Shown: one piece after another, positions 6,605 to 30,575 of the stretch
Position numbering within the stretch: position 1 is the stretch's first letter
How the letters are laid out: every line of letters begins with the position of its first letter
NCBI RefSeq assembly: GCF_050920415.1
Contig: NZ_CP169309.1
Direction: 5' to 3' (one strand)
DNA length: 64,000 nt
Source of the DNA: Escherichia coli
GTDB lineage: Bacteria > Pseudomonadota > Gammaproteobacteria > Enterobacterales > Enterobacteriaceae
Position numbers and translations under genes: made by a program
Notes under the pieces: model-generated
Told to the model about the DNA's origin: nothing
The model's database searches: none
The model's input: the letters and a program-made list of their open reading frames with translations, nothing else

Positions 6605-7048
6605 ATGAAAAACGCAACGTTCTACCTTCTGGACAATGACACCACCGTCGATGGCTTAAGCGCCGTTGAGCAGCTGGTGTGCGAAATTGCCGCAGAACGT
6701 TGGCGCAGCGGTAAGCGCGTACTCATCGCCTGTGAAGATGAAAAGCAGGCTTACCGACTGGATGAAGCCCTGTGGGCGCGTCCGGCAGAAAGCTTTGTTC
6801 CGCATAATTTAGCGGGAGAAGGACCGCGCGGCGGTGCACCGGTGGAGATCGCCTGGCCACAAAAGCGTAGCAGCAACCCGCGCGATATATTGATTAGTCT
6901 GCGAACAAGCTTTGCAGATTTTGCCACCGCTTTCACAGAAGTGGTAGACTTCGTTCCTTATGAAGATTCTCTGAAACAACTGGCGCGCGAACGCTATAAA
7001 GCCTACCGCGTGGCTGGTTTCAACCTGAATACGGCAACCTGGAAATAA
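6605..7048 (+). CDS. holC: DNA polymerase III chi subunit
   Basis: 147-aa [49 protein letters not shown]; stop overlaps valS start. Confidence 0.95.
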
Positions 7049-9903
7049 TGGAAAAGACATACAACCCACAAGATATCGAACAGCCGCTTTACGAGCACTG
7101 GGAAAAGCAGGGCTACTTTAAGCCTAATGGCGATGAAAGCCAGGAAAGTTTCTGCATCATGATCCCGCCGCCGAACGTCACCGGCAGTTTGCATATGGGT
7201 CACGCCTTCCAGCAAACCATCATGGATACCATGATCCGCTATCAGCGCATGCAGGGCAAAAACACCCTGTGGCAGGTCGGTACTGACCACGCAGGGATCG
7301 CTACCCAGATGGTCGTTGAGCGCAAGATTGCCGCAGAAGAAGGTAAAACCCGTCACGACTACGGCCGCGAAGCTTTCATCGACAAAATCTGGGAATGGAA
7401 AGCGGAATCCGGCGGCACCATTACCCGTCAGATGCGCCGTCTCGGCAACTCCGTCGACTGGGAGCGTGAACGCTTCACCATGGACGAAGGCCTGTCCAAT
7501 GCGGTGAAAGAAGTTTTCGTTCGTCTGTATAAAGAAGACCTGATTTACCGTGGTAAACGCCTGGTAAACTGGGACCCGAAACTGCGTACCGCTATCTCTG
7601 ACCTGGAAGTGGAAAACCGCGAATCGAAAGGTTCGATGTGGCACATCCGCTATCCGCTGGCTGATGGCGCGAAAACAGCAGACGGTAAAGATTATCTGGT
7701 GGTTGCGACTACCCGTCCGGAAACCCTGCTGGGCGATACCGGCGTGGCCGTTAACCCGGAAGATCCGCGTTACAAAGATCTGATTGGCAAATATGTCATT
7801 CTGCCGCTAGTTAACCGTCGTATTCCGATTGTTGGCGACGAACACGCCGATATGGAAAAAGGCACCGGCTGCGTGAAGATCACTCCGGCGCACGACTTTA
7901 ACGACTATGAAGTCGGTAAACGTCACGCCCTGCCGATGATCAACATCCTGACCTTTGACGGTGATATCCGTGAAAGCGCCCAGGTGTTCGATACTAAAGG
8001 TAACGAATCTGACGTTTATTCCAGCGAGATCCCGGCAGAGTTCCAGAAACTGGAGCGTTTTGCCGCGCGTAAAGCAGTCGTTGCTGCGGTTGATGCACTC
8101 GGCCTGCTGGAAGAAATTAAACCGCACGACCTGACCGTTCCTTACGGCGACCGTGGCGGCGTAGTTATCGAACCGATGCTGACCGACCAGTGGTACGTGC
8201 GTGCCGATGTACTGGCGAAACCGGCAGTTGAAGCGGTTGAGAACGGCGACATTCAGTTCGTACCGAAGCAGTACGAAAACATGTACTTCTCCTGGATGCG
8301 CGATATTCAGGACTGGTGTATCTCTCGTCAGCTGTGGTGGGGTCACCGTATCCCGGCATGGTACGACGAAGCGGGTAACGTTTATGTTGGCCGCAACGAA
8401 GACGAAGTGCGTAAAGAAAATAACCTCGGTGCCGACGTTGCCCTGCGTCAGGACGAAGACGTTCTCGACACCTGGTTCTCCTCCGCGCTGTGGACCTTCT
8501 CCACGCTCGGCTGGCCGGAAAACACCGACGCACTGCGCCAGTTCCACCCAACCAGCGTGATGGTATCCGGCTTCGACATCATCTTCTTCTGGATTGCCCG
8601 CATGATCATGATGACCATGCACTTCATCAAAGATGAAAATGGCAAACCGCAGGTGCCGTTCCACACCGTTTACATGACCGGCCTGATTCGTGATGACGAA
8701 GGCCAGAAGATGTCCAAATCCAAGGGTAACGTTATCGACCCGCTGGATATGGTTGATGGAATTTCTCTGCCGGAACTGCTGGAAAAACGTACCGGCAATA
8801 TGATGCAGCCGCAGCTGGCGGACAAAATCCGTAAGCGCACCGAGAAGCAGTTCCCGAACGGCATTGAGCCCCACGGCACTGATGCCCTGCGCTTTACCCT
8901 GGCCGCACTCGCTTCTACCGGTCGTGACATCAACTGGGATATGAAGCGTCTGGAAGGTTACCGTAACTTCTGTAACAAGCTGTGGAACGCCAGCCGCTTT
9001 GTGCTGATGAACACAGAAGGTCAGGATTGCGGCTTCAACGACGGCGAAATGACGCTGTCGCTGGCGGACCGCTGGATTCTGGCGGAGTTCAATCAGACCA
9101 TTAAAGCGTACCGCGAAGCGCTGGACAGCTTCCGCTTCGATATCGCCGCAGGCATTCTGTATGAATTCACCTGGAACCAGTTCTGTGACTGGTATCTGGA
9201 GCTGACCAAGCCGGTAATGAACGGTGGCACCGAAGCAGAACTGCGCGGTACTCGCCATACGCTGGTGACTGTACTGGAAGGTCTGCTGCGCCTCGCGCAT
9301 CCGATCATTCCGTTCATCACCGAAACCATCTGGCAGCGTGTGAAAGTACTTTGCGGTATCACTGCCGACACCATCATGCTGCAACCGTTCCCGCAGTATG
9401 ATGCATCTCAGGTTGATGAAGCCGCACTGGCCGACACCGAGTGGCTGAAGCAGGCGATCGTTGCGGTACGTAACATCCGTGCAGAAATGAACATCGCACC
9501 GGGTAAACCGCTGGAGCTGCTGCTGCGTGGTTGCAGCGCGGATGCAGAACGTCGCGTAAATGAAAACCGTGGCTTCCTGCAAACGCTGGCGCGTCTGGAA
9601 AGCATCACCGTGCTGCCTGCCGATGACAAAGGTCCGGTTTCCGTTACGAAGATCATCGACGGTGCAGAGCTGCTGATCCCGATGGCTGGCCTCATCAACA
9701 AAGAAGATGAGCTGGCGCGTCTGGCGAAAGAAGTGGCGAAGATTGAAGGTGAAATCAGCCGTATCGAGAACAAACTGGCGAACGAAGGCTTTGTCGCCCG
9801 CGCACCGGAAGCGGTCATCGCGAAAGAGCGTGAGAAGCTGGAAGGCTATGCGGAAGCGAAAGCGAAACTGATTGAGCAGCAGGCTGTTATCGCCGCGCTG
9901 TAA
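7048..9903 (+). CDS. valS: Valine--tRNA ligase
   Basis: 951-aa ORF with class I aaRS HMGH and KMSKS motifs. Confidence 0.97.
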
Positions 9904-9923: not shown

Positions 9924-9951
9924 AAGGCCGGAGCATGCTCCGGCCTTTTTT
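9924..9951. terminator. Intrinsic terminator hairpin downstream of valS (bidirectional with yjgN)
   Basis: aaggccggagcatgctccggcctt perfect stem followed by T-run. Confidence 0.8.
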
Positions 9952-9956
9952 ATCTC

Positions 9957-11153
9957 TTACAGAAATGGTAAAGAAGGCATAACTCCCCGAGAAATACTGG
10001 CTAAGAAGCCTTTATCTGGTTGTTCTTCTTTATTGATTAAAGGAAGGTCATCCAAATCGCCCAGCAAATACGTATTTTTTGCCTGCCAGTCAATCATCCA
10101 TATTTTCAACAGTGGATAAGCCAGACCGCCCGTAATCCCGGATATCACCACCAACGCACACATGCGATAAAGCATACCGTGGTACGTTAAAGTTGAGCGA
10201 AAACGAATACGCCCATCATTCAGTGATAGGTTGCTCATAAAATGGTTTCGCAACGACACCGTTAAATAACTGGTGCTAACAGCAATCCCAAAATAATAGA
10301 TTAACTGCGCGATTATCATTTTACGTTGCATTTCCATAAATTGCTGTAAATTCTCAATGTCATCATTTGCATATACAGAACTATCATACGCATTTAATAT
10401 TTGATCGAAGATAATATAACCAGCAACAGCGAGAAAAGGCAATAAAGCTAAAAATGCGAGAATGGCATATTTTATACAATACGTAGTATCTAATTTCACC
10501 TTGAAACGATGTATACCGAAACTGGTATTGCTCCAGAGAAAACTCATTACCAGACTATATAAAGTACCATTAAAAATACCAATGGAAACAATACCAACTA
10601 TTGCCATCAGAACCATAGATATAATAACACTACTTGAACTATTGGCATGTAGCATCTTTGTCGAGATAAAGAAAACAGTCCCCATCCCAACGGCCATTAA
10701 AATCGGCAAGAAAAAGGTCACCCACCAGAACCCTTTCATAGAGCAATTAAAACTAAATCTTACGCCGTTGAGACTGGTCATTAAGGCCTGATGACGCAGT
10801 CCTTTTGCTGCCATAAATATAAGCAAAACCAACAGTAACAAAGTCAAAACACAACCAACAAGCGGCATATCTGCTGACACTGTCATTAAGATTGCGAAAT
10901 AGAAAAAAACAAAAACAAGACAACTAACAAAAACATTCCCACCGGTAATTCCATAAGAAAATCGTTGTCCGTTAACTTCCATATTAGCATAAAGATAACG
11001 CTTACATTTCATTAATGCCCATGGTAAATAGATACCTAACGTTATAATCGTTAACAACACATTCACCACACAAATAAGAAAATACCTCTCACCTGTACCA
11101 TGAAAAACAAACGAATGGGACGGAACATCCATTTCATTAATAACTTGAGCCAT
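9957..11153 (-). CDS. yjgN: Inner membrane protein, DUF898 family
   Basis: 398-aa polytopic membrane ORF starting MAQVINEMDVPSHSF (internal ATG of the 407-aa track ORF). Confidence 0.85.
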   Translation of the reverse strand: MAQVINEMDVPSHSFVFHGTGERYFLICVVNVLLTIITLGIYLPWALMKCKRYLYANMEVNGQRFSYGITGGNVFVSCLVFVFFYFAILMTVSADMPLVGCVLTLLLLVLLIFMAAKGLRHQALMTSLNGVRFSFNCSMKGFWWVTFFLPILMAVGMGTVFFISTKMLHANSSSSVIISMVLMAIVGIVSIGIFNGTLYSLVMSFLWSNTSFGIHRFKVKLDTTYCIKYAILAFLALLPFLAVAGYIIFDQILNAYDSSVYANDDIENLQQFMEMQRKMIIAQLIYYFGIAVSTSYLTVSLRNHFMSNLSLNDGRIRFRSTLTYHGMLYRMCALVVISGITGGLAYPLLKIWMIDWQAKNTYLLGDLDDLPLINKEEQPDKGFLASISRGVMPSLPFL

Positions 11154-11345
11154 AAAAAATCCCTGAATTAAAAAATCCATTGATATAACTTATATATACA
11201 GACAGTAAAATGTTCTGCCACGTTACAATACTCTTATCAGTAATAGACTGGCAAAAACTTTATTACTTTATAAGTCGCTTGCGCACGTAAGAAGAGAGTG
11301 GTATTAAACAAATGTATAATTACTTTATTTTTATTGGGTTAAACT

Positions 11346-23850: not shown

Positions 23851-24798
23851 ATGCAAAATCGGCTGACCATCAAAGACATCGCGCGCTTAAGCGGCGTGGG
23901 GAAATCTACGGTTTCCCGAGTGCTGAATAACGAAAGCGGCGTGAGTCAGCGCACGCGCGAGCGCGTGGAAGCAGTGATGAATCAGCATGGATTTTCCCCT
24001 TCCCGCTCCGCACGCGCTATGCGTGGGCAAAGCGACAAAGTCGTCGCCATCATCGTGACCCGTCTGGATTCGTTGTCAGAAAATCTCGCCGTCCAAACCA
24101 TGCTGCCAGCGTTCTATGAACAAGGTTACGACCCGATCATGATGGAAAGTCAGTTTTCTCCGCAATTAGTTGCCGAACATTTGGGGGTGCTGAAACGGCG
24201 TAATATCGACGGCGTAGTGCTGTTCGGTTTTACCGGCATAACCGAAGACATGTTAGCCCACTGGCAGTCATCGCTGGTTCTGCTGGCGCGTGACGCAAAA
24301 GGCTTTGCTTCGGTCTGTTATGACGACGAAGGGGCAATCAAAATCCTGATGCAACGGCTGTATGACCAGGGACATCGTAATATCAGTTATCTCGGCGTGC
24401 CGCATAGTGACGTGACGACCGGTAAGCGACGTCACGAAGCCTACCTGGTGTTCTGCAAAGCGCATAAACTGCATCCCGTTGCCGCTCTGCCAGGCCTTGC
24501 GATGAAGCAAGGCTATGAGAACGTAGCAAAAGTGATTACGCCTGAAACTACCGCGTTACTGTGCGCAACCGACACGCTGGCACTTGGCGCAAGTAAATAC
24601 CTGCAAGAGCAACGCATCGACACCTTGCAACTGGCGAGCGTCGGTAATACGCCGTTAATGAAATTCCTCCATCCGGAGATCGTCACCGTTGACCCAGGTT
24701 ACGCCGAAGCTGGACGCCAGGCGGCCTGCCAGTTGATCGCGCAGGTAACCGGGCGCAGCGAACCGCAACAAATCATCATCCCCGCCACCCTGTCCTGA
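23851..24798 (+). CDS. treR: Trehalose operon repressor (LacI family)
   Basis: 315-aa ORF from ATG at 23851 (MQNRLTIKDIARLSGVGKSTVSRVLN), N-terminal LacI-type HTH. Confidence 0.95.
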   Translation: MQNRLTIKDIARLSGVGKSTVSRVLNNESGVSQRTRERVEAVMNQHGFSPSRSARAMRGQSDKVVAIIVTRLDSLSENLAVQTMLPAFYEQGYDPIMMESQFSPQLVAEHLGVLKRRNIDGVVLFGFTGITEDMLAHWQSSLVLLARDAKGFASVCYDDEGAIKILMQRLYDQGHRNISYLGVPHSDVTTGKRRHEAYLVFCKAHKLHPVAALPGLAMKQGYENVAKVITPETTALLCATDTLALGASKYLQEQRIDTLQLASVGNTPLMKFLHPEIVTVDPGYAEAGRQAACQLIAQVTGRSEPQQIIIPATLS

Positions 24799-24916
24799 TC
24801 GTTTCCTGAACGATAAATTGTGATCTTCGCTGCGTTTCGGGAACGTTCCCGTTTTTAAATTTTTCCGCGCACTATATTCTGCAGCCAACCAAAAATGTCA
24901 TCTGCCATGGGGCTTT

Positions 24917-26338
24917 ATGATGAGCAAAATAAACCAAACGGATATCGATCGGTTGATTGAACTGGTCGGCGGGCGCGGCAACATTGCGACGGTGAGCCAC
25001 TGTATTACTCGCCTGCGCTTTGTCCTCAACCAACCGGCCAATGCCAGACCGAAAGAAATTGAGCAACTCCCCATGGTGAAAGGCTGTTTCACCAATGCCG
25101 GGCAATTTCAGGTGGTAATTGGCACCAACGTGGGTGATTACTATCAAGCGCTGATAGCGACGACCGGACAGGCGCAGGTTGATAAAGAGCAGGTGAAAAA
25201 AGCCGCCCGGCAGAATATGAAATGGCATGAGCAGTTGATCTCTCATTTCGCGGAGATCTTCTTCCCGCTGCTGCCCGCGTTGATTAGTGGTGGTTTGATC
25301 CTCGGTTTTCGCAATGTGATCGGCGATTTGCCCATGAGCAACGGTCAAACGCTGGCGCAAATATACCCTTCCCTGCAAACGATCTACGATTTTCTATGGT
25401 TGATCGGTGAAGCGATCTTCTTCTACCTGCCGGTCGGAATTTGCTGGTCAGCGGTGAAAAAAATGGGCGGCACGCCGATCCTCGGTATCGTGCTTGGCGT
25501 GACGCTGGTTTCCCCACAGTTGATGAACGCTTATCTGCTCGGGCAGCAGCTGCCGGAAGTATGGAACTTTGGCATGTTCAGCATCGCCAAAGTGGGCTAT
25601 CAGGCACAGGTTATTCCGGCATTGTTAGCCGGGCTGGCGCTGGGCGTGATAGAAACTCGCCTTAAGCGTATCGTGCCGGATTACCTCTATCTGGTGGTGG
25701 TGCCGGTCTGTTCGCTGATCCTCGCGGTCTTCCTCGCCCATGCGCTGATCGGTCCGTTTGGTCGCATGATTGGCGATGGCGTTGCCTTTGCGGTGCGTCA
25801 CCTGATGACCGGCAGCTTTGCCCCCATTGGTGCGGCATTGTTTGGCTTCCTTTACGCACCGCTGGTGATCACCGGCGTACACCAGACCACGCTTGCTATA
25901 GATTTGCAGATGATTCAAAGCATGGGTGGCACGCCAGTATGGCCGCTTATTGCGCTGTCGAATATCGCTCAGGGCTCCGCCGTGATAGGCATTATCATTT
26001 CCAGCCGCAAGAGCAATGAACGCGAGATCTCCGTACCTGCCGCTATCTCCGCCTGGCTTGGGGTCACTGAGCCTGCAATGTACGGCATCAACCTGAAATA
26101 TCGCTTCCCGATGCTGTGCGCGATGATTGGTTCTGGTCTGGCTGGATTGCTATGTGGTCTGAACGGCGTTATGGCGAATGGCATCGGCGTAGGCGGCCTG
26201 CCGGGAATTCTCTCTATTCAACCGAGCTATTGGCAAGTGTTTGCGCTGGCAATGGCTATCGCCATCATCATCCCGATTGTACTCACCTCATTTATCTACC
26301 AGCGGAAATACCGCCTGGGTACGCTGGACATTGTTTAA
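24917..26338 (+). CDS. treB: PTS trehalose-specific EIIBC component
   Basis: 473-aa membrane ORF with EIIB cysteine motif near N-terminus (VSHCITRLRF). Confidence 0.95.
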   Translation: MMSKINQTDIDRLIELVGGRGNIATVSHCITRLRFVLNQPANARPKEIEQLPMVKGCFTNAGQFQVVIGTNVGDYYQALIATTGQAQVDKEQVKKAARQNMKWHEQLISHFAEIFFPLLPALISGGLILGFRNVIGDLPMSNGQTLAQIYPSLQTIYDFLWLIGEAIFFYLPVGICWSAVKKMGGTPILGIVLGVTLVSPQLMNAYLLGQQLPEVWNFGMFSIAKVGYQAQVIPALLAGLALGVIETRLKRIVPDYLYLVVVPVCSLILAVFLAHALIGPFGRMIGDGVAFAVRHLMTGSFAPIGAALFGFLYAPLVITGVHQTTLAIDLQMIQSMGGTPVWPLIALSNIAQGSAVIGIIISSRKSNEREISVPAAISAWLGVTEPAMYGINLKYRFPMLCAMIGSGLAGLLCGLNGVMANGIGVGGLPGILSIQPSYWQVFALAMAIAIIIPIVLTSFIYQRKYRLGTLDIV

Positions 26339-26346
26339 TTTTCTTC

Positions 26347-26364
26347 GGGGCGCAATTGCGCCCC
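26347..26364 (+). other. Intercistronic perfect palindrome between treB and treC
   Basis: GGGGCGCAATTGCGCCCC, an 18-bp perfect palindrome with no following T-run. Confidence 0.6.
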
Positions 26365-26387
26365 CTCGCATTTGCAGGAATAACGTA

Positions 26388-28043
26388 ATGACGAATCTTC
26401 CCCACTGGTGGCAAAACGGCGTTATCTACCAGATTTATCCCAAGAGTTTTCAGGACACCACGGGCAGCGGCACCGGCGATTTACGTGGCGTTATCCAACG
26501 CCTGGACTATCTGCATAAACTGGGCGTCGATGCTATCTGGCTAACCCCCTTTTATGTCTCTCCCCAGGTCGATAACGGATACGACGTAGCGAACTATACG
26601 GCGATAGATCCCACTTACGGTACGCTGGACGATTTTGACGAAATGGTGACGCAGGCGAAATCGCGCGGCATTCGTATCATTCTCGATATGGTGTTTAATC
26701 ATACTTCTACCCAACATGCCTGGTTTCGTGAGGCGCTGAGCAAAGAAAGCCCTTACCGCCAGTTTTATATCTGGCGCGATGGTGAACCAGAAACGCCACC
26801 GAATAACTGGCGTTCAAAATTTGGCGGTAGTGCGTGGCGCTGGCATGCGGAAAGCGAACAGTACTATTTGCATCTCTTTGCACCAGAACAGGCGGATCTC
26901 AACTGGGAGAATTCGGCGGTACGCGCCGAGCTGAAAAAAGTCTGTGAGTTCTGGGCCGATCGCGGGGTCGACGGGTTACGCCTGGATGTAGTGAATTTGA
27001 TCTCTAAAGATCTGCGTTTTCCTAATGACCTGGATGGCGATGGGCGTCGCTTCTACACCGACGGGCCACGAGCACACGAGTTTTTGCATGAGATGAACCG
27101 CGATGTGTTTACGCCTCGCGGTTTAATGACCGTGGGTGAAATGTCCTCCACCAGCCTTGAGCATTGCCAGCGATACGCGGCACTAACAGGCAGTGAATTG
27201 TCGATGACCTTTAATTTTCATCACCTGAAGGTCGATTATCCCGGTGGTGAAAAATGGACGCTGGCTAAACCTGACTTTGTGGGGTTGAAAGCATTGTTCC
27301 GCCACTGGCAACAAGGAATGCACAACGTGGCATGGAATGCCTTGTTCTGGTGTAACCACGATCAGCCGCGCATTGTTTCTCGTTTTGGTGATGAAGGGGA
27401 CTACCGCGAACCTGCGGCAAAAATGCTGGCGATGGTGCTGCATGGCATGCAGGGAACGCCATATATCTATCAGGGCGAAGAGATTGGCATGACTAACCCA
27501 CATTTCACGCGCATTACTGACTATCGCGACGTGGAGAGCCTCAATATGTTTGCCGAACTGCGCAACGATGGGCGTGACGCCGAGGAGTTATTGGCAATCC
27601 TCGCCAGTAAATCCCGTGACAATAGTCGCACGCCAATGCAATGGAGCAACGGCGATAATGCCGGGTTTACAACGGGTGAACCGTGGATTGGCCTGGGCGA
27701 TAACTATCAAGAAATCAACGTAGAAGCCGCGCTGGCCGATGAGTCCTCGGTGTTTTACACCTACCAAAAGTTAATCGCACTGCGTAAGCAAGAAGCCGTC
27801 CTGACATGGGGCAATTACCAGGATCTGCTGCCAGACAGCCCTGTATTGTGGTGCTATCGCCGTGAATGGAAGGGGCAAACCTTGCTGGTCATTGCCAACC
27901 TTAGCCGTGAGACCCAACCCTGGCAGCCAGGGCAAATGCGCGGCAACTGGCAGTTGCTGGTGCATAACTACGAAGAAGCCTCAGCACAACCCTGTGCCAT
28001 GACTTTACGGCCTTTTGAGGCCGTCTGGTGGTTACAGAAGTAA
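26388..28043 (+). CDS. treC: Trehalose-6-phosphate hydrolase
   Basis: 551-aa ORF from ATG at 26388 (MTNLPHWWQNGVIYQIYPKSF), GH13 alpha-amylase family. Confidence 0.95.
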   Translation: MTNLPHWWQNGVIYQIYPKSFQDTTGSGTGDLRGVIQRLDYLHKLGVDAIWLTPFYVSPQVDNGYDVANYTAIDPTYGTLDDFDEMVTQAKSRGIRIILDMVFNHTSTQHAWFREALSKESPYRQFYIWRDGEPETPPNNWRSKFGGSAWRWHAESEQYYLHLFAPEQADLNWENSAVRAELKKVCEFWADRGVDGLRLDVVNLISKDLRFPNDLDGDGRRFYTDGPRAHEFLHEMNRDVFTPRGLMTVGEMSSTSLEHCQRYAALTGSELSMTFNFHHLKVDYPGGEKWTLAKPDFVGLKALFRHWQQGMHNVAWNALFWCNHDQPRIVSRFGDEGDYREPAAKMLAMVLHGMQGTPYIYQGEEIGMTNPHFTRITDYRDVESLNMFAELRNDGRDAEELLAILASKSRDNSRTPMQWSNGDNAGFTTGEPWIGLGDNYQEINVEAALADESSVFYTYQKLIALRKQEAVLTWGNYQDLLPDSPVLWCYRREWKGQTLLVIANLSRETQPWQPGQMRGNWQLLVHNYEEASAQPCAMTLRPFEAVWWLQK

Positions 28044-28187
28044 GTATCCGCTAAGCCCCGGTAATACTGGTCATTCCGGGGTTTTGCCTTTCAGCATGTT
28101 GTTTTTGTTGATTTTATAATCAAAAAATTCATTAAAAAATTTACATAACGCTGTAGCGCCCGTCATCCGTACGCTCTGCTTTTTACT

Positions 28188-28232
28188 TTGAGCTACATCA
28201 AAAAAAGTTCAAACATCCTTGATGCAAAGCAC
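28188..28232 (+). promoter_or_regulatory. Putative tandem FNR sites in nrdDG promoter
   Basis: TTGAGctacATCAA (28188-28201) and TTGATgcaaAGCAC (28219-28232), centres exactly 31 bp apart; TAAAAT -10-like hexamer at 28246-28251. Confidence 0.5.
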
Positions 28233-28436
28233 TATATATAGACTTTAAAATGCGTCCCGACCCAATATGTTGTATTAATCGACTATAATTGCTACTACAA
28301 CTCCCCACGAAAAAGGTGCGGCGTTGTGGATAAGCGGATGGCGATTGCGGAAAGCGCCGGAAAACGAAACGAAAAAACCGGAAAACACCTTTCCCAATTT
28401 CTGTGGATAACCTGTTCTTAAAAATATGGAGCGATC

Positions 28437-30575
28437 ATGACACCGCATGTGATGAAACGAGACGGCTGCAAAGTGCCGTTTAAATCAGAGCGCATCAAAG
28501 AAGCGATTCTGCGTGCAGCTAAAGCAGCGGAAGTCGATGATGCAGATTATTGCGCCACTGTTGCCGCGGTTGTCAGCGAGCAGATGCAGGGCCGCAGCCA
28601 GGTGGATATCAACGAGATCCAGACCGCCGTTGAAAACCAGCTGATGTCGGGTCCATACAAACAACTGGCTCGTGCTTACATCGAGTACCGTCACGATCGC
28701 GACATTGAACGTGAAAAACGCGGTCGCCTGAATCAGGAGATCCGTGGTCTGGTCGAGCAGACCAACGCCTCGTTGCTCAACGAAAACGCCAACAAAGACA
28801 GCAAGGTGATTCCAACCCAGCGCGACCTGCTGGCCGGGATTGTGGCTAAACACTATGCACGTCAGCACCTGCTGCCGCGTGACGTGGTGCAGGCGCATGA
28901 GCGTGGCGATATTCACTATCACGATCTCGATTACTCGCCGTTCTTCCCGATGTTCAACTGCATGTTGATCGACCTGAAAGGTATGCTGACCCAGGGCTTT
29001 AAGATGGGGAACGCCGAGATTGAACCACCGAAGTCGATCTCTACGGCAACCGCGGTAACTGCGCAGATTATTGCTCAGGTCGCCAGTCATATTTATGGCG
29101 GCACCACCATTAACCGTATCGATGAAGTGCTGGCACCGTTTGTCACCGCCAGCTACAACAAACACCGCAAGACCGCAGAAGAGTGGAATATCCCGGACGC
29201 CGAAGGTTACGCTAACTCTCGTACCATCAAAGAGTGCTACGATGCCTTCCAGTCGCTGGAGTACGAAGTAAACACCCTGCACACCGCCAACGGTCAAACA
29301 CCGTTTGTGACCTTTGGTTTTGGTCTGGGCACCAGCTGGGAGTCTCGCCTGATTCAGGAGTCTATCCTGCGTAACCGTATCGCGGGCCTCGGTAAAAACC
29401 GCAAAACTGCGGTGTTCCCGAAACTGGTGTTTGCGATTCGCGATGGCCTGAACCATAAAAAAGGCGATCCGAACTACGACATCAAACAGCTGGCGCTGGA
29501 GTGCGCAAGCAAGCGCATGTATCCGGATATCCTGAACTACGATCAGGTAGTGAAAGTCACCGGTTCGTTTAAAACCCCGATGGGCTGCCGTAGCTTCCTC
29601 GGCGTGTGGGAAAATGAAAACGGCGAACAGATCCACGATGGTCGTAACAACCTCGGCGTGATCAGCCTGAACCTGCCGCGCATTGCTCTGGAAGCGAAAG
29701 GCGATGAAGCCACCTTCTGGAAGCTGCTGGATGAACGTCTGGTGCTGGCACGTAAGGCGCTGATGACCCGTATCGCTCGTCTCGAAGGCGTTAAAGCGCG
29801 CGTGGCCCCGATCCTCTATATGGAAGGTGCTTGTGGCGTTCGTCTGAATGCTGACGACGACGTTTCTGAAATCTTCAAAAACGGTCGTGCGTCTATTTCG
29901 CTGGGTTACATCGGCATCCACGAAACCATTAACGCGCTGTTTGGCGGCGAGCATGTGTATGACAACGAGCAGCTGCGCGCGAAAGGTATCGCCATTGTTG
30001 AACGTCTGCGTCAGGCGGTGGATCAGTGGAAAGAAGAAACGGGTTACGGTTTTAGCCTTTACAGCACGCCAAGTGAAAACCTGTGCGACCGCTTCTGCCG
30101 TCTCGATACCGCAGAGTTTGGCGTGGTGCCGGGCGTGACTGATAAAGGTTACTACACCAACAGTTTCCACCTCGATGTGGAGAAGAAGGTGAACCCGTAC
30201 GACAAGATCGACTTTGAAGCGCCTTACCCGCCGCTGGCGAACGGTGGCTTCATTTGCTACGGCGAATATCCAAACATTCAGCACAACCTGAAGGCGCTGG
30301 AAGATGTCTGGGATTACAGCTATCAGCATGTACCGTATTACGGCACCAATACGCCGATTGATGAGTGTTACGAGTGTGGTTTTACCGGTGAGTTTGAGTG
30401 CACCAGTAAAGGCTTCACCTGCCCGAAATGCGGTAACCATGACGCCTCCCGTGTGTCGGTGACTCGCCGCGTGTGCGGATATTTAGGTAGCCCGGATGCG
30501 CGTCCGTTTAACGCTGGTAAGCAGGAAGAAGTTAAGCGCCGCGTTAAACATTTGGGAAATGGGCAGATCGGTTAA
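28437..30575 (+). CDS. nrdD: Anaerobic ribonucleoside-triphosphate reductase
   Basis: 712-aa ORF with C-terminal glycyl-radical region and Zn-binding cysteines (CYECGFTGEFECTSKGFTCPKCGNHD). Confidence 0.97.
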   Translation: MTPHVMKRDGCKVPFKSERIKEAILRAAKAAEVDDADYCATVAAVVSEQMQGRSQVDINEIQTAVENQLMSGPYKQLARAYIEYRHDRDIEREKRGRLNQEIRGLVEQTNASLLNENANKDSKVIPTQRDLLAGIVAKHYARQHLLPRDVVQAHERGDIHYHDLDYSPFFPMFNCMLIDLKGMLTQGFKMGNAEIEPPKSISTATAVTAQIIAQVASHIYGGTTINRIDEVLAPFVTASYNKHRKTAEEWNIPDAEGYANSRTIKECYDAFQSLEYEVNTLHTANGQTPFVTFGFGLGTSWESRLIQESILRNRIAGLGKNRKTAVFPKLVFAIRDGLNHKKGDPNYDIKQLALECASKRMYPDILNYDQVVKVTGSFKTPMGCRSFLGVWENENGEQIHDGRNNLGVISLNLPRIALEAKGDEATFWKLLDERLVLARKALMTRIARLEGVKARVAPILYMEGACGVRLNADDDVSEIFKNGRASISLGYIGIHETINALFGGEHVYDNEQLRAKGIAIVERLRQAVDQWKEETGYGFSLYSTPSENLCDRFCRLDTAEFGVVPGVTDKGYYTNSFHLDVEKKVNPYDKIDFEAPYPPLANGGFICYGEYPNIQHNLKALEDVWDYSYQHVPYYGTNTPIDECYECGFTGEFECTSKGFTCPKCGNHDASRVSVTRRVCGYLGSPDARPFNAGKQEEVKRRVKHLGNGQIG

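Follow-up and report, generated by a model that had tools for sequence, protein, structure and literature searches.

Organization of the treB-treC locus

The sequence analysed was a 64,000-nucleotide stretch of Escherichia coli DNA (hereafter the window), in which the genes for the trehalose transporter (treB) and the trehalose-6-phosphate hydrolase (treC) follow one another on the same strand. The region matched in 5,425 of 5,426 complete E. coli genomes with the annotated gene order treR-treB-treC-nrdD, and the two flanking genes are named after the RefSeq records of E. coli loci that are identical to this one or nearly so. The spacer between them (26339-26387) is 49 nt long, and the features of the operon relevant to it are the following.

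24917..26338, + strand: treB (PTS trehalose EIIBC) coding sequence, from the ORF list and the RefSeq annotation of matching E. coli loci; stop codon TAA at 26336-26338
26339..26346, + strand: pyrimidine tract UUUUCUUC from the stop codon to the stem; mean pairwise identity 0.55
26347..26353, + strand: hairpin 5' arm GGGGCGC; mean pairwise identity 0.967 across species
26354..26357, + strand: tetraloop AAUU; variable, identity 0.55
26358..26364, + strand: hairpin 3' arm GCGCCCC; identity 0.963
26365..26380, + strand: U-poor tail beginning CUCGCAUUUG, which contains the mapped RNA 3' ends and equals the whole published TRS region 4464717-4464732
26376..26379, + strand: treC Shine-Dalgarno sequence AGGA, with 8 nt between it and the ATG; orthologues keep CAGGA with hardly any change
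26388..28043, + strand: treC (trehalose-6-phosphate hydrolase) coding sequence, from the ORF list and the RefSeq annotation of matching E. coli loci; ATG at 26388-26390
28056..28087, + strand: canonical operon-end terminator, stem CCCCGG...CCGGGG and then UUUU; the K-12 3' end 4463010 corresponds to about 28087

The spacer contains the perfect 18-bp palindrome GGGGCGCAATTGCGCCCC (26347-26364), with TTTTCTTC before it and CTCGCATTTGCAGGA after it, and has no T-run directly 3' of the stem, as the first-pass annotation of this DNA had described. From the stem to the treC start the sequence reads CTCGCATTTGCAGGAATAACGTA-ATG, where a TTT lies 7-9 nt downstream of the stem. The structure starts 8 nt past the treB stop codon and stops 11 nt short of the treC Shine-Dalgarno sequence, and the segment between hairpin and Shine-Dalgarno sequence is well conserved. 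A calculation of folding energy, which the same annotation had suggested as a check, predicted a stable RNA hairpin: the 18-mer gave -15.0 kcal/mol (z = -3.5) for a 7-bp stem, composed entirely of G-C and C-G pairs, that closes a loop of 4 nt, and with short flanks the value was -16.1 kcal/mol (z = -3.7) with 95% of the ensemble in the hairpin structure. No promoter-like site was found in the spacer by a consensus scan, and treC is therefore expected to depend on read-through from the treB promoter.

Several known classes of element were considered for the palindrome and rejected. It is not a REP/BIME sequence or other dispersed repeat, as it occurs at a median of one place per E. coli genome and in one copy in the window. 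A covariance scan of 23400-28600 against Rfam 15 (E<=10) returned only the Mg2+ riboswitch of mgtA and two chance matches elsewhere, none of them at the hairpin, and the lack of an Rfam match together with the single copy indicates that the element is not a riboswitch, an sRNA or a REP element. The riboswitch itself (RF01056, 125.8 bits) lies at 23568-23683 on the - strand and represents the mgtA leader, beside which mgtL is annotated in matching E. coli records. A TreR operator at the hairpin was rejected as well, because the likely operator is a different, perfect 14-bp palindrome, CGGGAACGTTCCCG (24838-24851), located in the gap between treR (stop at 24798) and treB (start at 24917). We take this palindrome to be the probable operator of TreR (LacI family) from its resemblance to operators of that family; a simple scan flagged it as terminator-like owing to the TTTTT after it.

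Perfect palindromes of at least 18 bp occurred twice in the 64-kb window against 0.28 expected by first-order Markov resampling (100 samples, maximum 2). The second, AAGGCCGGAGCATGCTCCGGCCTT (9924-9947), is flanked by AAAACG upstream and TTTTTAT downstream, sits between the convergent open reading frames 7048-9903 (+) and 9957-11180 (-), and looks like a textbook bidirectional intrinsic terminator. It resembles the treB-treC palindrome in being perfect, GC-rich and intergenic, but is preceded by an A-tract, followed by a T-tract and bordered by convergent genes, whereas the treB-treC hairpin has a U/C tract before it, no T-tract and co-directional cistrons.

Conservation of the stem across Enterobacteriaceae

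A scan of one genome per species yielded 80 Enterobacteriaceae treC loci. With the window and four further E. coli alleles counted in, 82 treB-treC junctions were analysed. Sampling was confined to this family; a search for homologous proteins gave close relatives only, and a wider one in a 50%-clustered library returned matches of about 60% identity or less, save one short fragment, and no intermediate-range orthologues. Of the 82 junctions, 79 had a hairpin at the same place, invariably 5-15 nt downstream of the end of treB, and 63 of these 79 had exactly the stem GGGGCGC/GCGCCCC. The loop showed about 25 variants, of which AGUU was the commonest, while AAUU was limited to E. coli, Kluyvera and Enterobacter soli. 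Since AAUU alone makes the palindrome perfect and is confined to few taxa, palindromy is an accident of one loop sequence. The stress that the first-pass annotation had laid on perfect palindromy is thus unsupported, the loop being AGTT or another sequence in most relatives, and judged from the alignments the selected feature is the stem and not the perfect palindrome.

Mean pairwise identity by region was compared among 69 species. The stem arms gave 0.967 and 0.963, against 0.55 for the loop, 0.55 for the 8 nt upstream of the stem and 0.51-0.56 for the tail; third codon positions of the flanking treB and treC sequences gave 0.53-0.55 and first and second codon positions 0.72-0.86. The tract before the stem is U/C-rich in essentially all orthologues, with an exact sequence that is not fixed.

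In an alignment of 73 sequences 98.6% of cells were paired, and double changes occurred at two pairs. Further compensatory stems, identified by eye and lying out of alignment register, were GGGGUGC/GCACCCC in the Citrobacter gillenii group, GGGGCCA/UGGCCCC and GGGGCCG/CGGCCCC in Buttiauxella, and GGGCGCGG/CCGCGCCC in 'Enterobacter' pulveris. One-sided changes in the stem led mostly to G.U pairs on the sense strand (L006, L063, L082 and F070). The element therefore behaves as a generic conserved structured RNA, in which pairing is kept through compensatory and wobble changes and unpaired positions drift; independent double changes are few (about four lineages) because the stem is almost invariant.

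In Buttiauxella brennerae the spacer measures 118 nt (L084, 2383-2500), has no GGGGCGC hairpin and carries a dispersed repeat whose fold is a long hairpin with an energy of about -29 kcal/mol; parts of this repeat, which we take to be ERIC-like, match E. coli genomes at 8,034 places. In Citrobacter sp. Res13-Sevr-PEB04-36 (L017, about 2414-2447) the treB frame stops 33 nt early in comparison with its relatives and the normal C-terminal coding sequence runs on in another frame, reflecting a frameshift or a sequencing error.

Variation within E. coli

K-12 and the window have the same hairpin, and 4,963 of 5,423 E. coli genomes share the surrounding 37 nt without a difference. Sampled variants retained the stem, with a C-run one base shorter (S43), a closing G.U pair (F070) or a change in the tail (N61). 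A deletion of 16 bp (TTGCGCCCCCTCGCAT), which lies between direct TTGC repeats, was found in 13 genomes from human, pig, chicken and swan sources, among them the strains SL124 (L003, 2529-2563) and 2012EL-2448; it takes out the 3' arm, abolishes the structure and reduces the spacer to 33 nt. As treB and treC are still annotated as intact in all 13, the element is dispensable for viability.

The treBC allele of the window is itself unusual, since over 26100-26650 one strain (MFDS1022581) matches it at 100% and only 11 genomes reach 99% identity or more, with about 5,400 genomes at 95-99%. This suggests a minority lineage or a recombinant segment.

Mapped 3' ends and transcript coverage

Published 3'-end maps place strong RNA ends at the base of the hairpin in two independent K-12 data sets, where the first-pass annotation had asked for such ends to be sought. 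Coordinates of MG1655 were transferred to the window through a K-12 record of identical length and checked against the printed Term-seq sequence. The Term-seq end 4464728(-), with 425,606 reads and classified as 'primary' for treB (Adams et al. 2021, PMC7815308, Supplementary file 1, LB OD 0.4), corresponds to window position 26369, 5 nt past the stem, the printed sequence putting it at ...GCGCCCC-CUCGC. The TRS terminus region 4464717-4464732, an 'alternative primary in TU' for treB, has its peak at 4464726 (Bar et al. 2023, PMC10687069, Supplementary Data 2), which is window position 26371, 7 nt past the stem. The end at the treC terminator (4463010) had 64,109 Term-seq reads (PMC7815308), so that the hairpin end exceeds it 6.6 times, and the read-through-based TRS measure was 0.973 at the hairpin vs 0.954 at the treC terminator (PMC10687069). 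Neither Term-seq nor RNAtag-seq can tell termination from processing. Literature searches found no dedicated description of the treB-treC hairpin; its 3' end is already catalogued, uncommented, in these two data sets, and the hairpin is otherwise uncharacterised.

Within treB, five further Term-seq ends were recorded by Adams et al. (MG1655 4465154, 4465462, 4465875, 4465998 and 4466176; 24,000-49,000 reads each), none of them Rho-dependent. These are probably decay intermediates of an mRNA highly expressed in early LB growth.

Rho-dependent termination followed by trimming was rejected as the source of the hairpin end. There are no treB or treC entries in the Rho-termination table of Adams et al., and for an 800-nt window over the hairpin the bicyclomycin comparison gave upstream/downstream values of 589/531 vs 414/416, a Rho score of 1.1 and the call 'No' (PMC7815308). 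The unchanged coverage ratio across the site, together with the missing table entry, shows that the 3' end is not Rho-dependent.

Coverage runs on into treC, and the step across the hairpin is roughly two-fold by our own crude back-calculation from the 800-nt windows. This continuation, with the lack of a promoter-like site in the spacer, means that the hairpin cannot stop all transcripts, in agreement with the earlier view that it is unlikely to be a full terminator. The 3'-end reads and the crude coverage step would point to a more abundant upstream message, yet treC-treB, although among the 390 operons analysed by Dar and Sorek (2018, PMC5927463), is absent from their 47 differential-decay operons, and so a large difference in half-life between treB and treC is not documented.

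The tail of the hairpin and leaky intrinsic termination

The stem-loop has the form expected of an intrinsic terminator (GC-rich, a stem of about 5-14 bp and a loop of 3-8 nt), and its in vivo 3' ends fall within the usual distance of about 5-9 nt past the stem. The U-tract directly 3' of the stem is missing in E. coli. An absolute test by the d'Aubenton-Carafa discriminant (with modern energies) was dropped because the genuine treC terminator also scored negative, and only the T-tail score was used, as a comparative measure.

On this measure the E. coli tail CUCGCAUU(U/C), with a single U within its first three positions, scored 0.66-0.71 vs 3.4-3.8 for the treC terminator. Values were 0.05 for Salmonella enterica subsp. 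diarizonae (tail AACGCACUUG) and 0.3-1.0 for the Citrobacter freundii group, and no genuine U-tract follows the hairpin in Escherichia, Salmonella or Citrobacter. Genuine U-tracts were present in some orthologues (L056, L060, L063, L065, L011 and L036): the Kosakonia-like tail UUCUUUUUU and the Trabulsiella tail CUUUUUU scored 2.5-3.8, equal to the treC terminator, and in the Klebsiella michiganensis/spallanzanii group the U-run of the tail CCUUUUUU is displaced by two C and the score was 1.6-1.7. A semi-U-rich tail, UUCGCAUUU, was the commonest and scored 1.97.

These tails bear directly on a possible but, in our judgement, rather unlikely explanation, namely that RNA polymerase itself releases some transcripts at the hairpin despite the poor U-tract, perhaps aided by NusA. 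The mapped end would then be a primary termination product, and the treB:treC ratio would be set by transcription and not by decay. The combination of a 7-bp GC stem and a tetraloop is archetypal for a terminator, the mapped ends lie 5-7 nt past the stem as the bona fide treC end lies 6 nt past its own stem, and the U-rich tails of the genera named above, as well as the middling score of the commonest tail, are consistent with polymerase release. The insensitivity of coverage to bicyclomycin agrees with it also, and the absence of treBC from the differential-decay operons leans slightly towards termination. Against it, the stem is just as strongly conserved where the tail is without U, as in Salmonella, and the hairpin can therefore function in the absence of a U-tract. 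Where no U-tract lies close to a hairpin, termination by E. coli RNA polymerase is inefficient, and a consensus terminator scan made no call at the treB-treC hairpin. The terminator-motif filter of Dar and Sorek likewise left the operon in their set (PMC5927463). The first-pass annotation nevertheless calls for a correction here, as the real U-tracts of orthologous hairpins in several genera make leaky intrinsic termination a possible contributor.

Other explanations

A more elaborate role would be that of a translation-sensed attenuator, in which a ribosome finishing treB, or its absence, decides whether the hairpin forms in the wake of RNA polymerase, or of a docking site for a sequence-specific RNA-binding protein. 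Conservation of the stem sequence goes beyond the needs of a generic barrier and could mean more than a passive barrier, but selection for maximal GC stability also explains it, and we regard this role as improbable. If an attenuator were present, transcription of treC would be tied to the translation or membrane insertion of TreB.

Slightly less probable still is a 5' shield or insulator for treC, whereby RNase E would cut at UAA|UUUU and the stem would guard the new 5' end or simply keep the treC ribosome-binding site unpaired and unaffected by the sequence upstream. The sequence at the treB stop, UAA|UUUUC, fits the RNase E motif RN|WUU (a match made by eye, which provides a candidate site only), and the mechanism is documented for other operons (PMC5927463). 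The good conservation of CAGGA and of the segment leading to it from a stem 11 nt upstream also agrees with such a role. Unpaired 5' nucleotides give poor protection against 5'-end-dependent RNase E, however, and a cut at this site would leave eight of them. The direct experimental signal at the hairpin is moreover a 3' end and not a 5' end, and no treB or treC entries were found in the supplements of the Salmonella RNase E cleavage map, which is weak evidence as gene names are perhaps not used there.

We give very little credence to an element acting at the DNA level, such as a palindrome that forms a cruciform, or an inverted repeat (GGGGCGC-N4-GCGCCCC) serving as operator for a dimeric DNA-binding protein. 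Conserved arms around a free 4-bp centre would also fit a dimer binding site, and the palindrome is perfect in E. coli, but that perfection is confined to few taxa. The hairpin lies inside the transcription unit, 1.4 kb from the promoter, and is unlike the putative TreR operator. Changes in the arms are compensatory and mostly G.U-compatible on the sense strand, RNA 3' ends map to the base of the hairpin, and in B. brennerae the hairpin has been exchanged for an unrelated long hairpin element, all of which argue against a DNA element. A functionless chance palindrome, of which about 0.3 of 18 bp would be expected per 64 kb, can practically be dismissed, as over about 80 species conservation of the stem surpasses that of first and second codon positions, and 3' ends have been mapped to the stem.

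Proposed function of the treB-treC hairpin and comparison with known systems

The explanation that we favour, at somewhat better than even probability, is that the intercistronic stem-loop sets the 3' end of a transcript carrying treB alone and protects that end, whether by blocking exonucleases, by leaky termination or by both, with the remaining transcripts continuing into treC. The finding of a stable stem-loop downstream of treB with a 3' end at its base agrees with such a stabiliser. Transcription would start at a single treB promoter and the palindrome would work as a stem-loop in the treBC mRNA; much of the RNA at steady state would stop 5-7 nt past the stem as a treB-only message, and the rest would run on to the treC terminator. 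The stem would define and shield this internal 3' end, which in E. coli may be made mainly by 3'-to-5' exonucleases (PNPase, RNase II) trimming from a downstream cut and stalling at the stem in the manner of the malE-malF stabilisers, with weak hairpin-driven termination as a probable secondary route. We lean towards the processing route on account of the equal conservation of stems without U, the general requirement of E. coli RNA polymerase for a proximal U-tract and the high accumulation of the end; the two routes are not mutually exclusive. The net effect would be more, and longer-lived, message for the transporter than for the hydrolase from one promoter, with a presumed consequence for the ratio of the two proteins. 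The earlier proposal that the hairpin serves RNA stability or processing, or sets differential expression within the operon, is in this respect supported by the mapped ends and the crude coverage step, both of which it had named as checks.

Such a hairpin would explain unequal trehalose transporter and hydrolase messages from one promoter. It changes no concept, being a well-known kind of element and presumably an ordinary means, inside an operon, of producing more mRNA for treB than for treC. As a hairpin of 18 nt kept across a bacterial family, it does add a clean and minimal example to the 3'-end elements located within operons. Its natural series (U-tract present, U-tract absent, stem deleted) would be convenient for telling termination by the hairpin alone from trimming by exonucleases, two processes between which Term-seq catalogues do not decide.

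Three groups of known systems invite comparison. The leaky intrinsic terminators within operons, of which the rplL-rpoB attenuator and gltI-sroC-gltJ are examples, share with the treB-treC element a GC-rich tetraloop hairpin in the spacer, a 3' end 5-7 nt past the stem and a distal gene expressed through read-through, and the orthologues of some genera have the full U-tract. They differ in that the hairpins of E. coli, Salmonella and Citrobacter are without the U-tract that defines the class; polymerase release is a candidate mechanism there.

The processed 3' ends of Rho-terminated transcripts (Dar and Sorek 2018, NAR, PMC6061677) have in common with our element a stable hairpin without U and a 3' end a few nt downstream, a combination that implies exonucleolytic trimming to the stem. 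Unlike that class, treB and treC have no reported Rho-termination region and bicyclomycin was without effect on coverage.

The third group is that of the intercistronic stabilisers, represented by the malE-malF REP hairpins of malEFG and by the structures of Dar and Sorek (2018, PMC5927463). In common with these, a stable stem-loop lies between cistrons with a 3' end at its base, RNA ends of the upstream gene outnumber those at the operon end, and the structure is conserved in related enterobacteria. In contrast to the protective structures of Dar and Sorek, treBC was analysed in that study and not listed as differentially decaying. Compared with the malE-malF REP sequences, the treB-treC hairpin is single-copy, of unrelated sequence and, as a simple 18-nt hairpin, much shorter.
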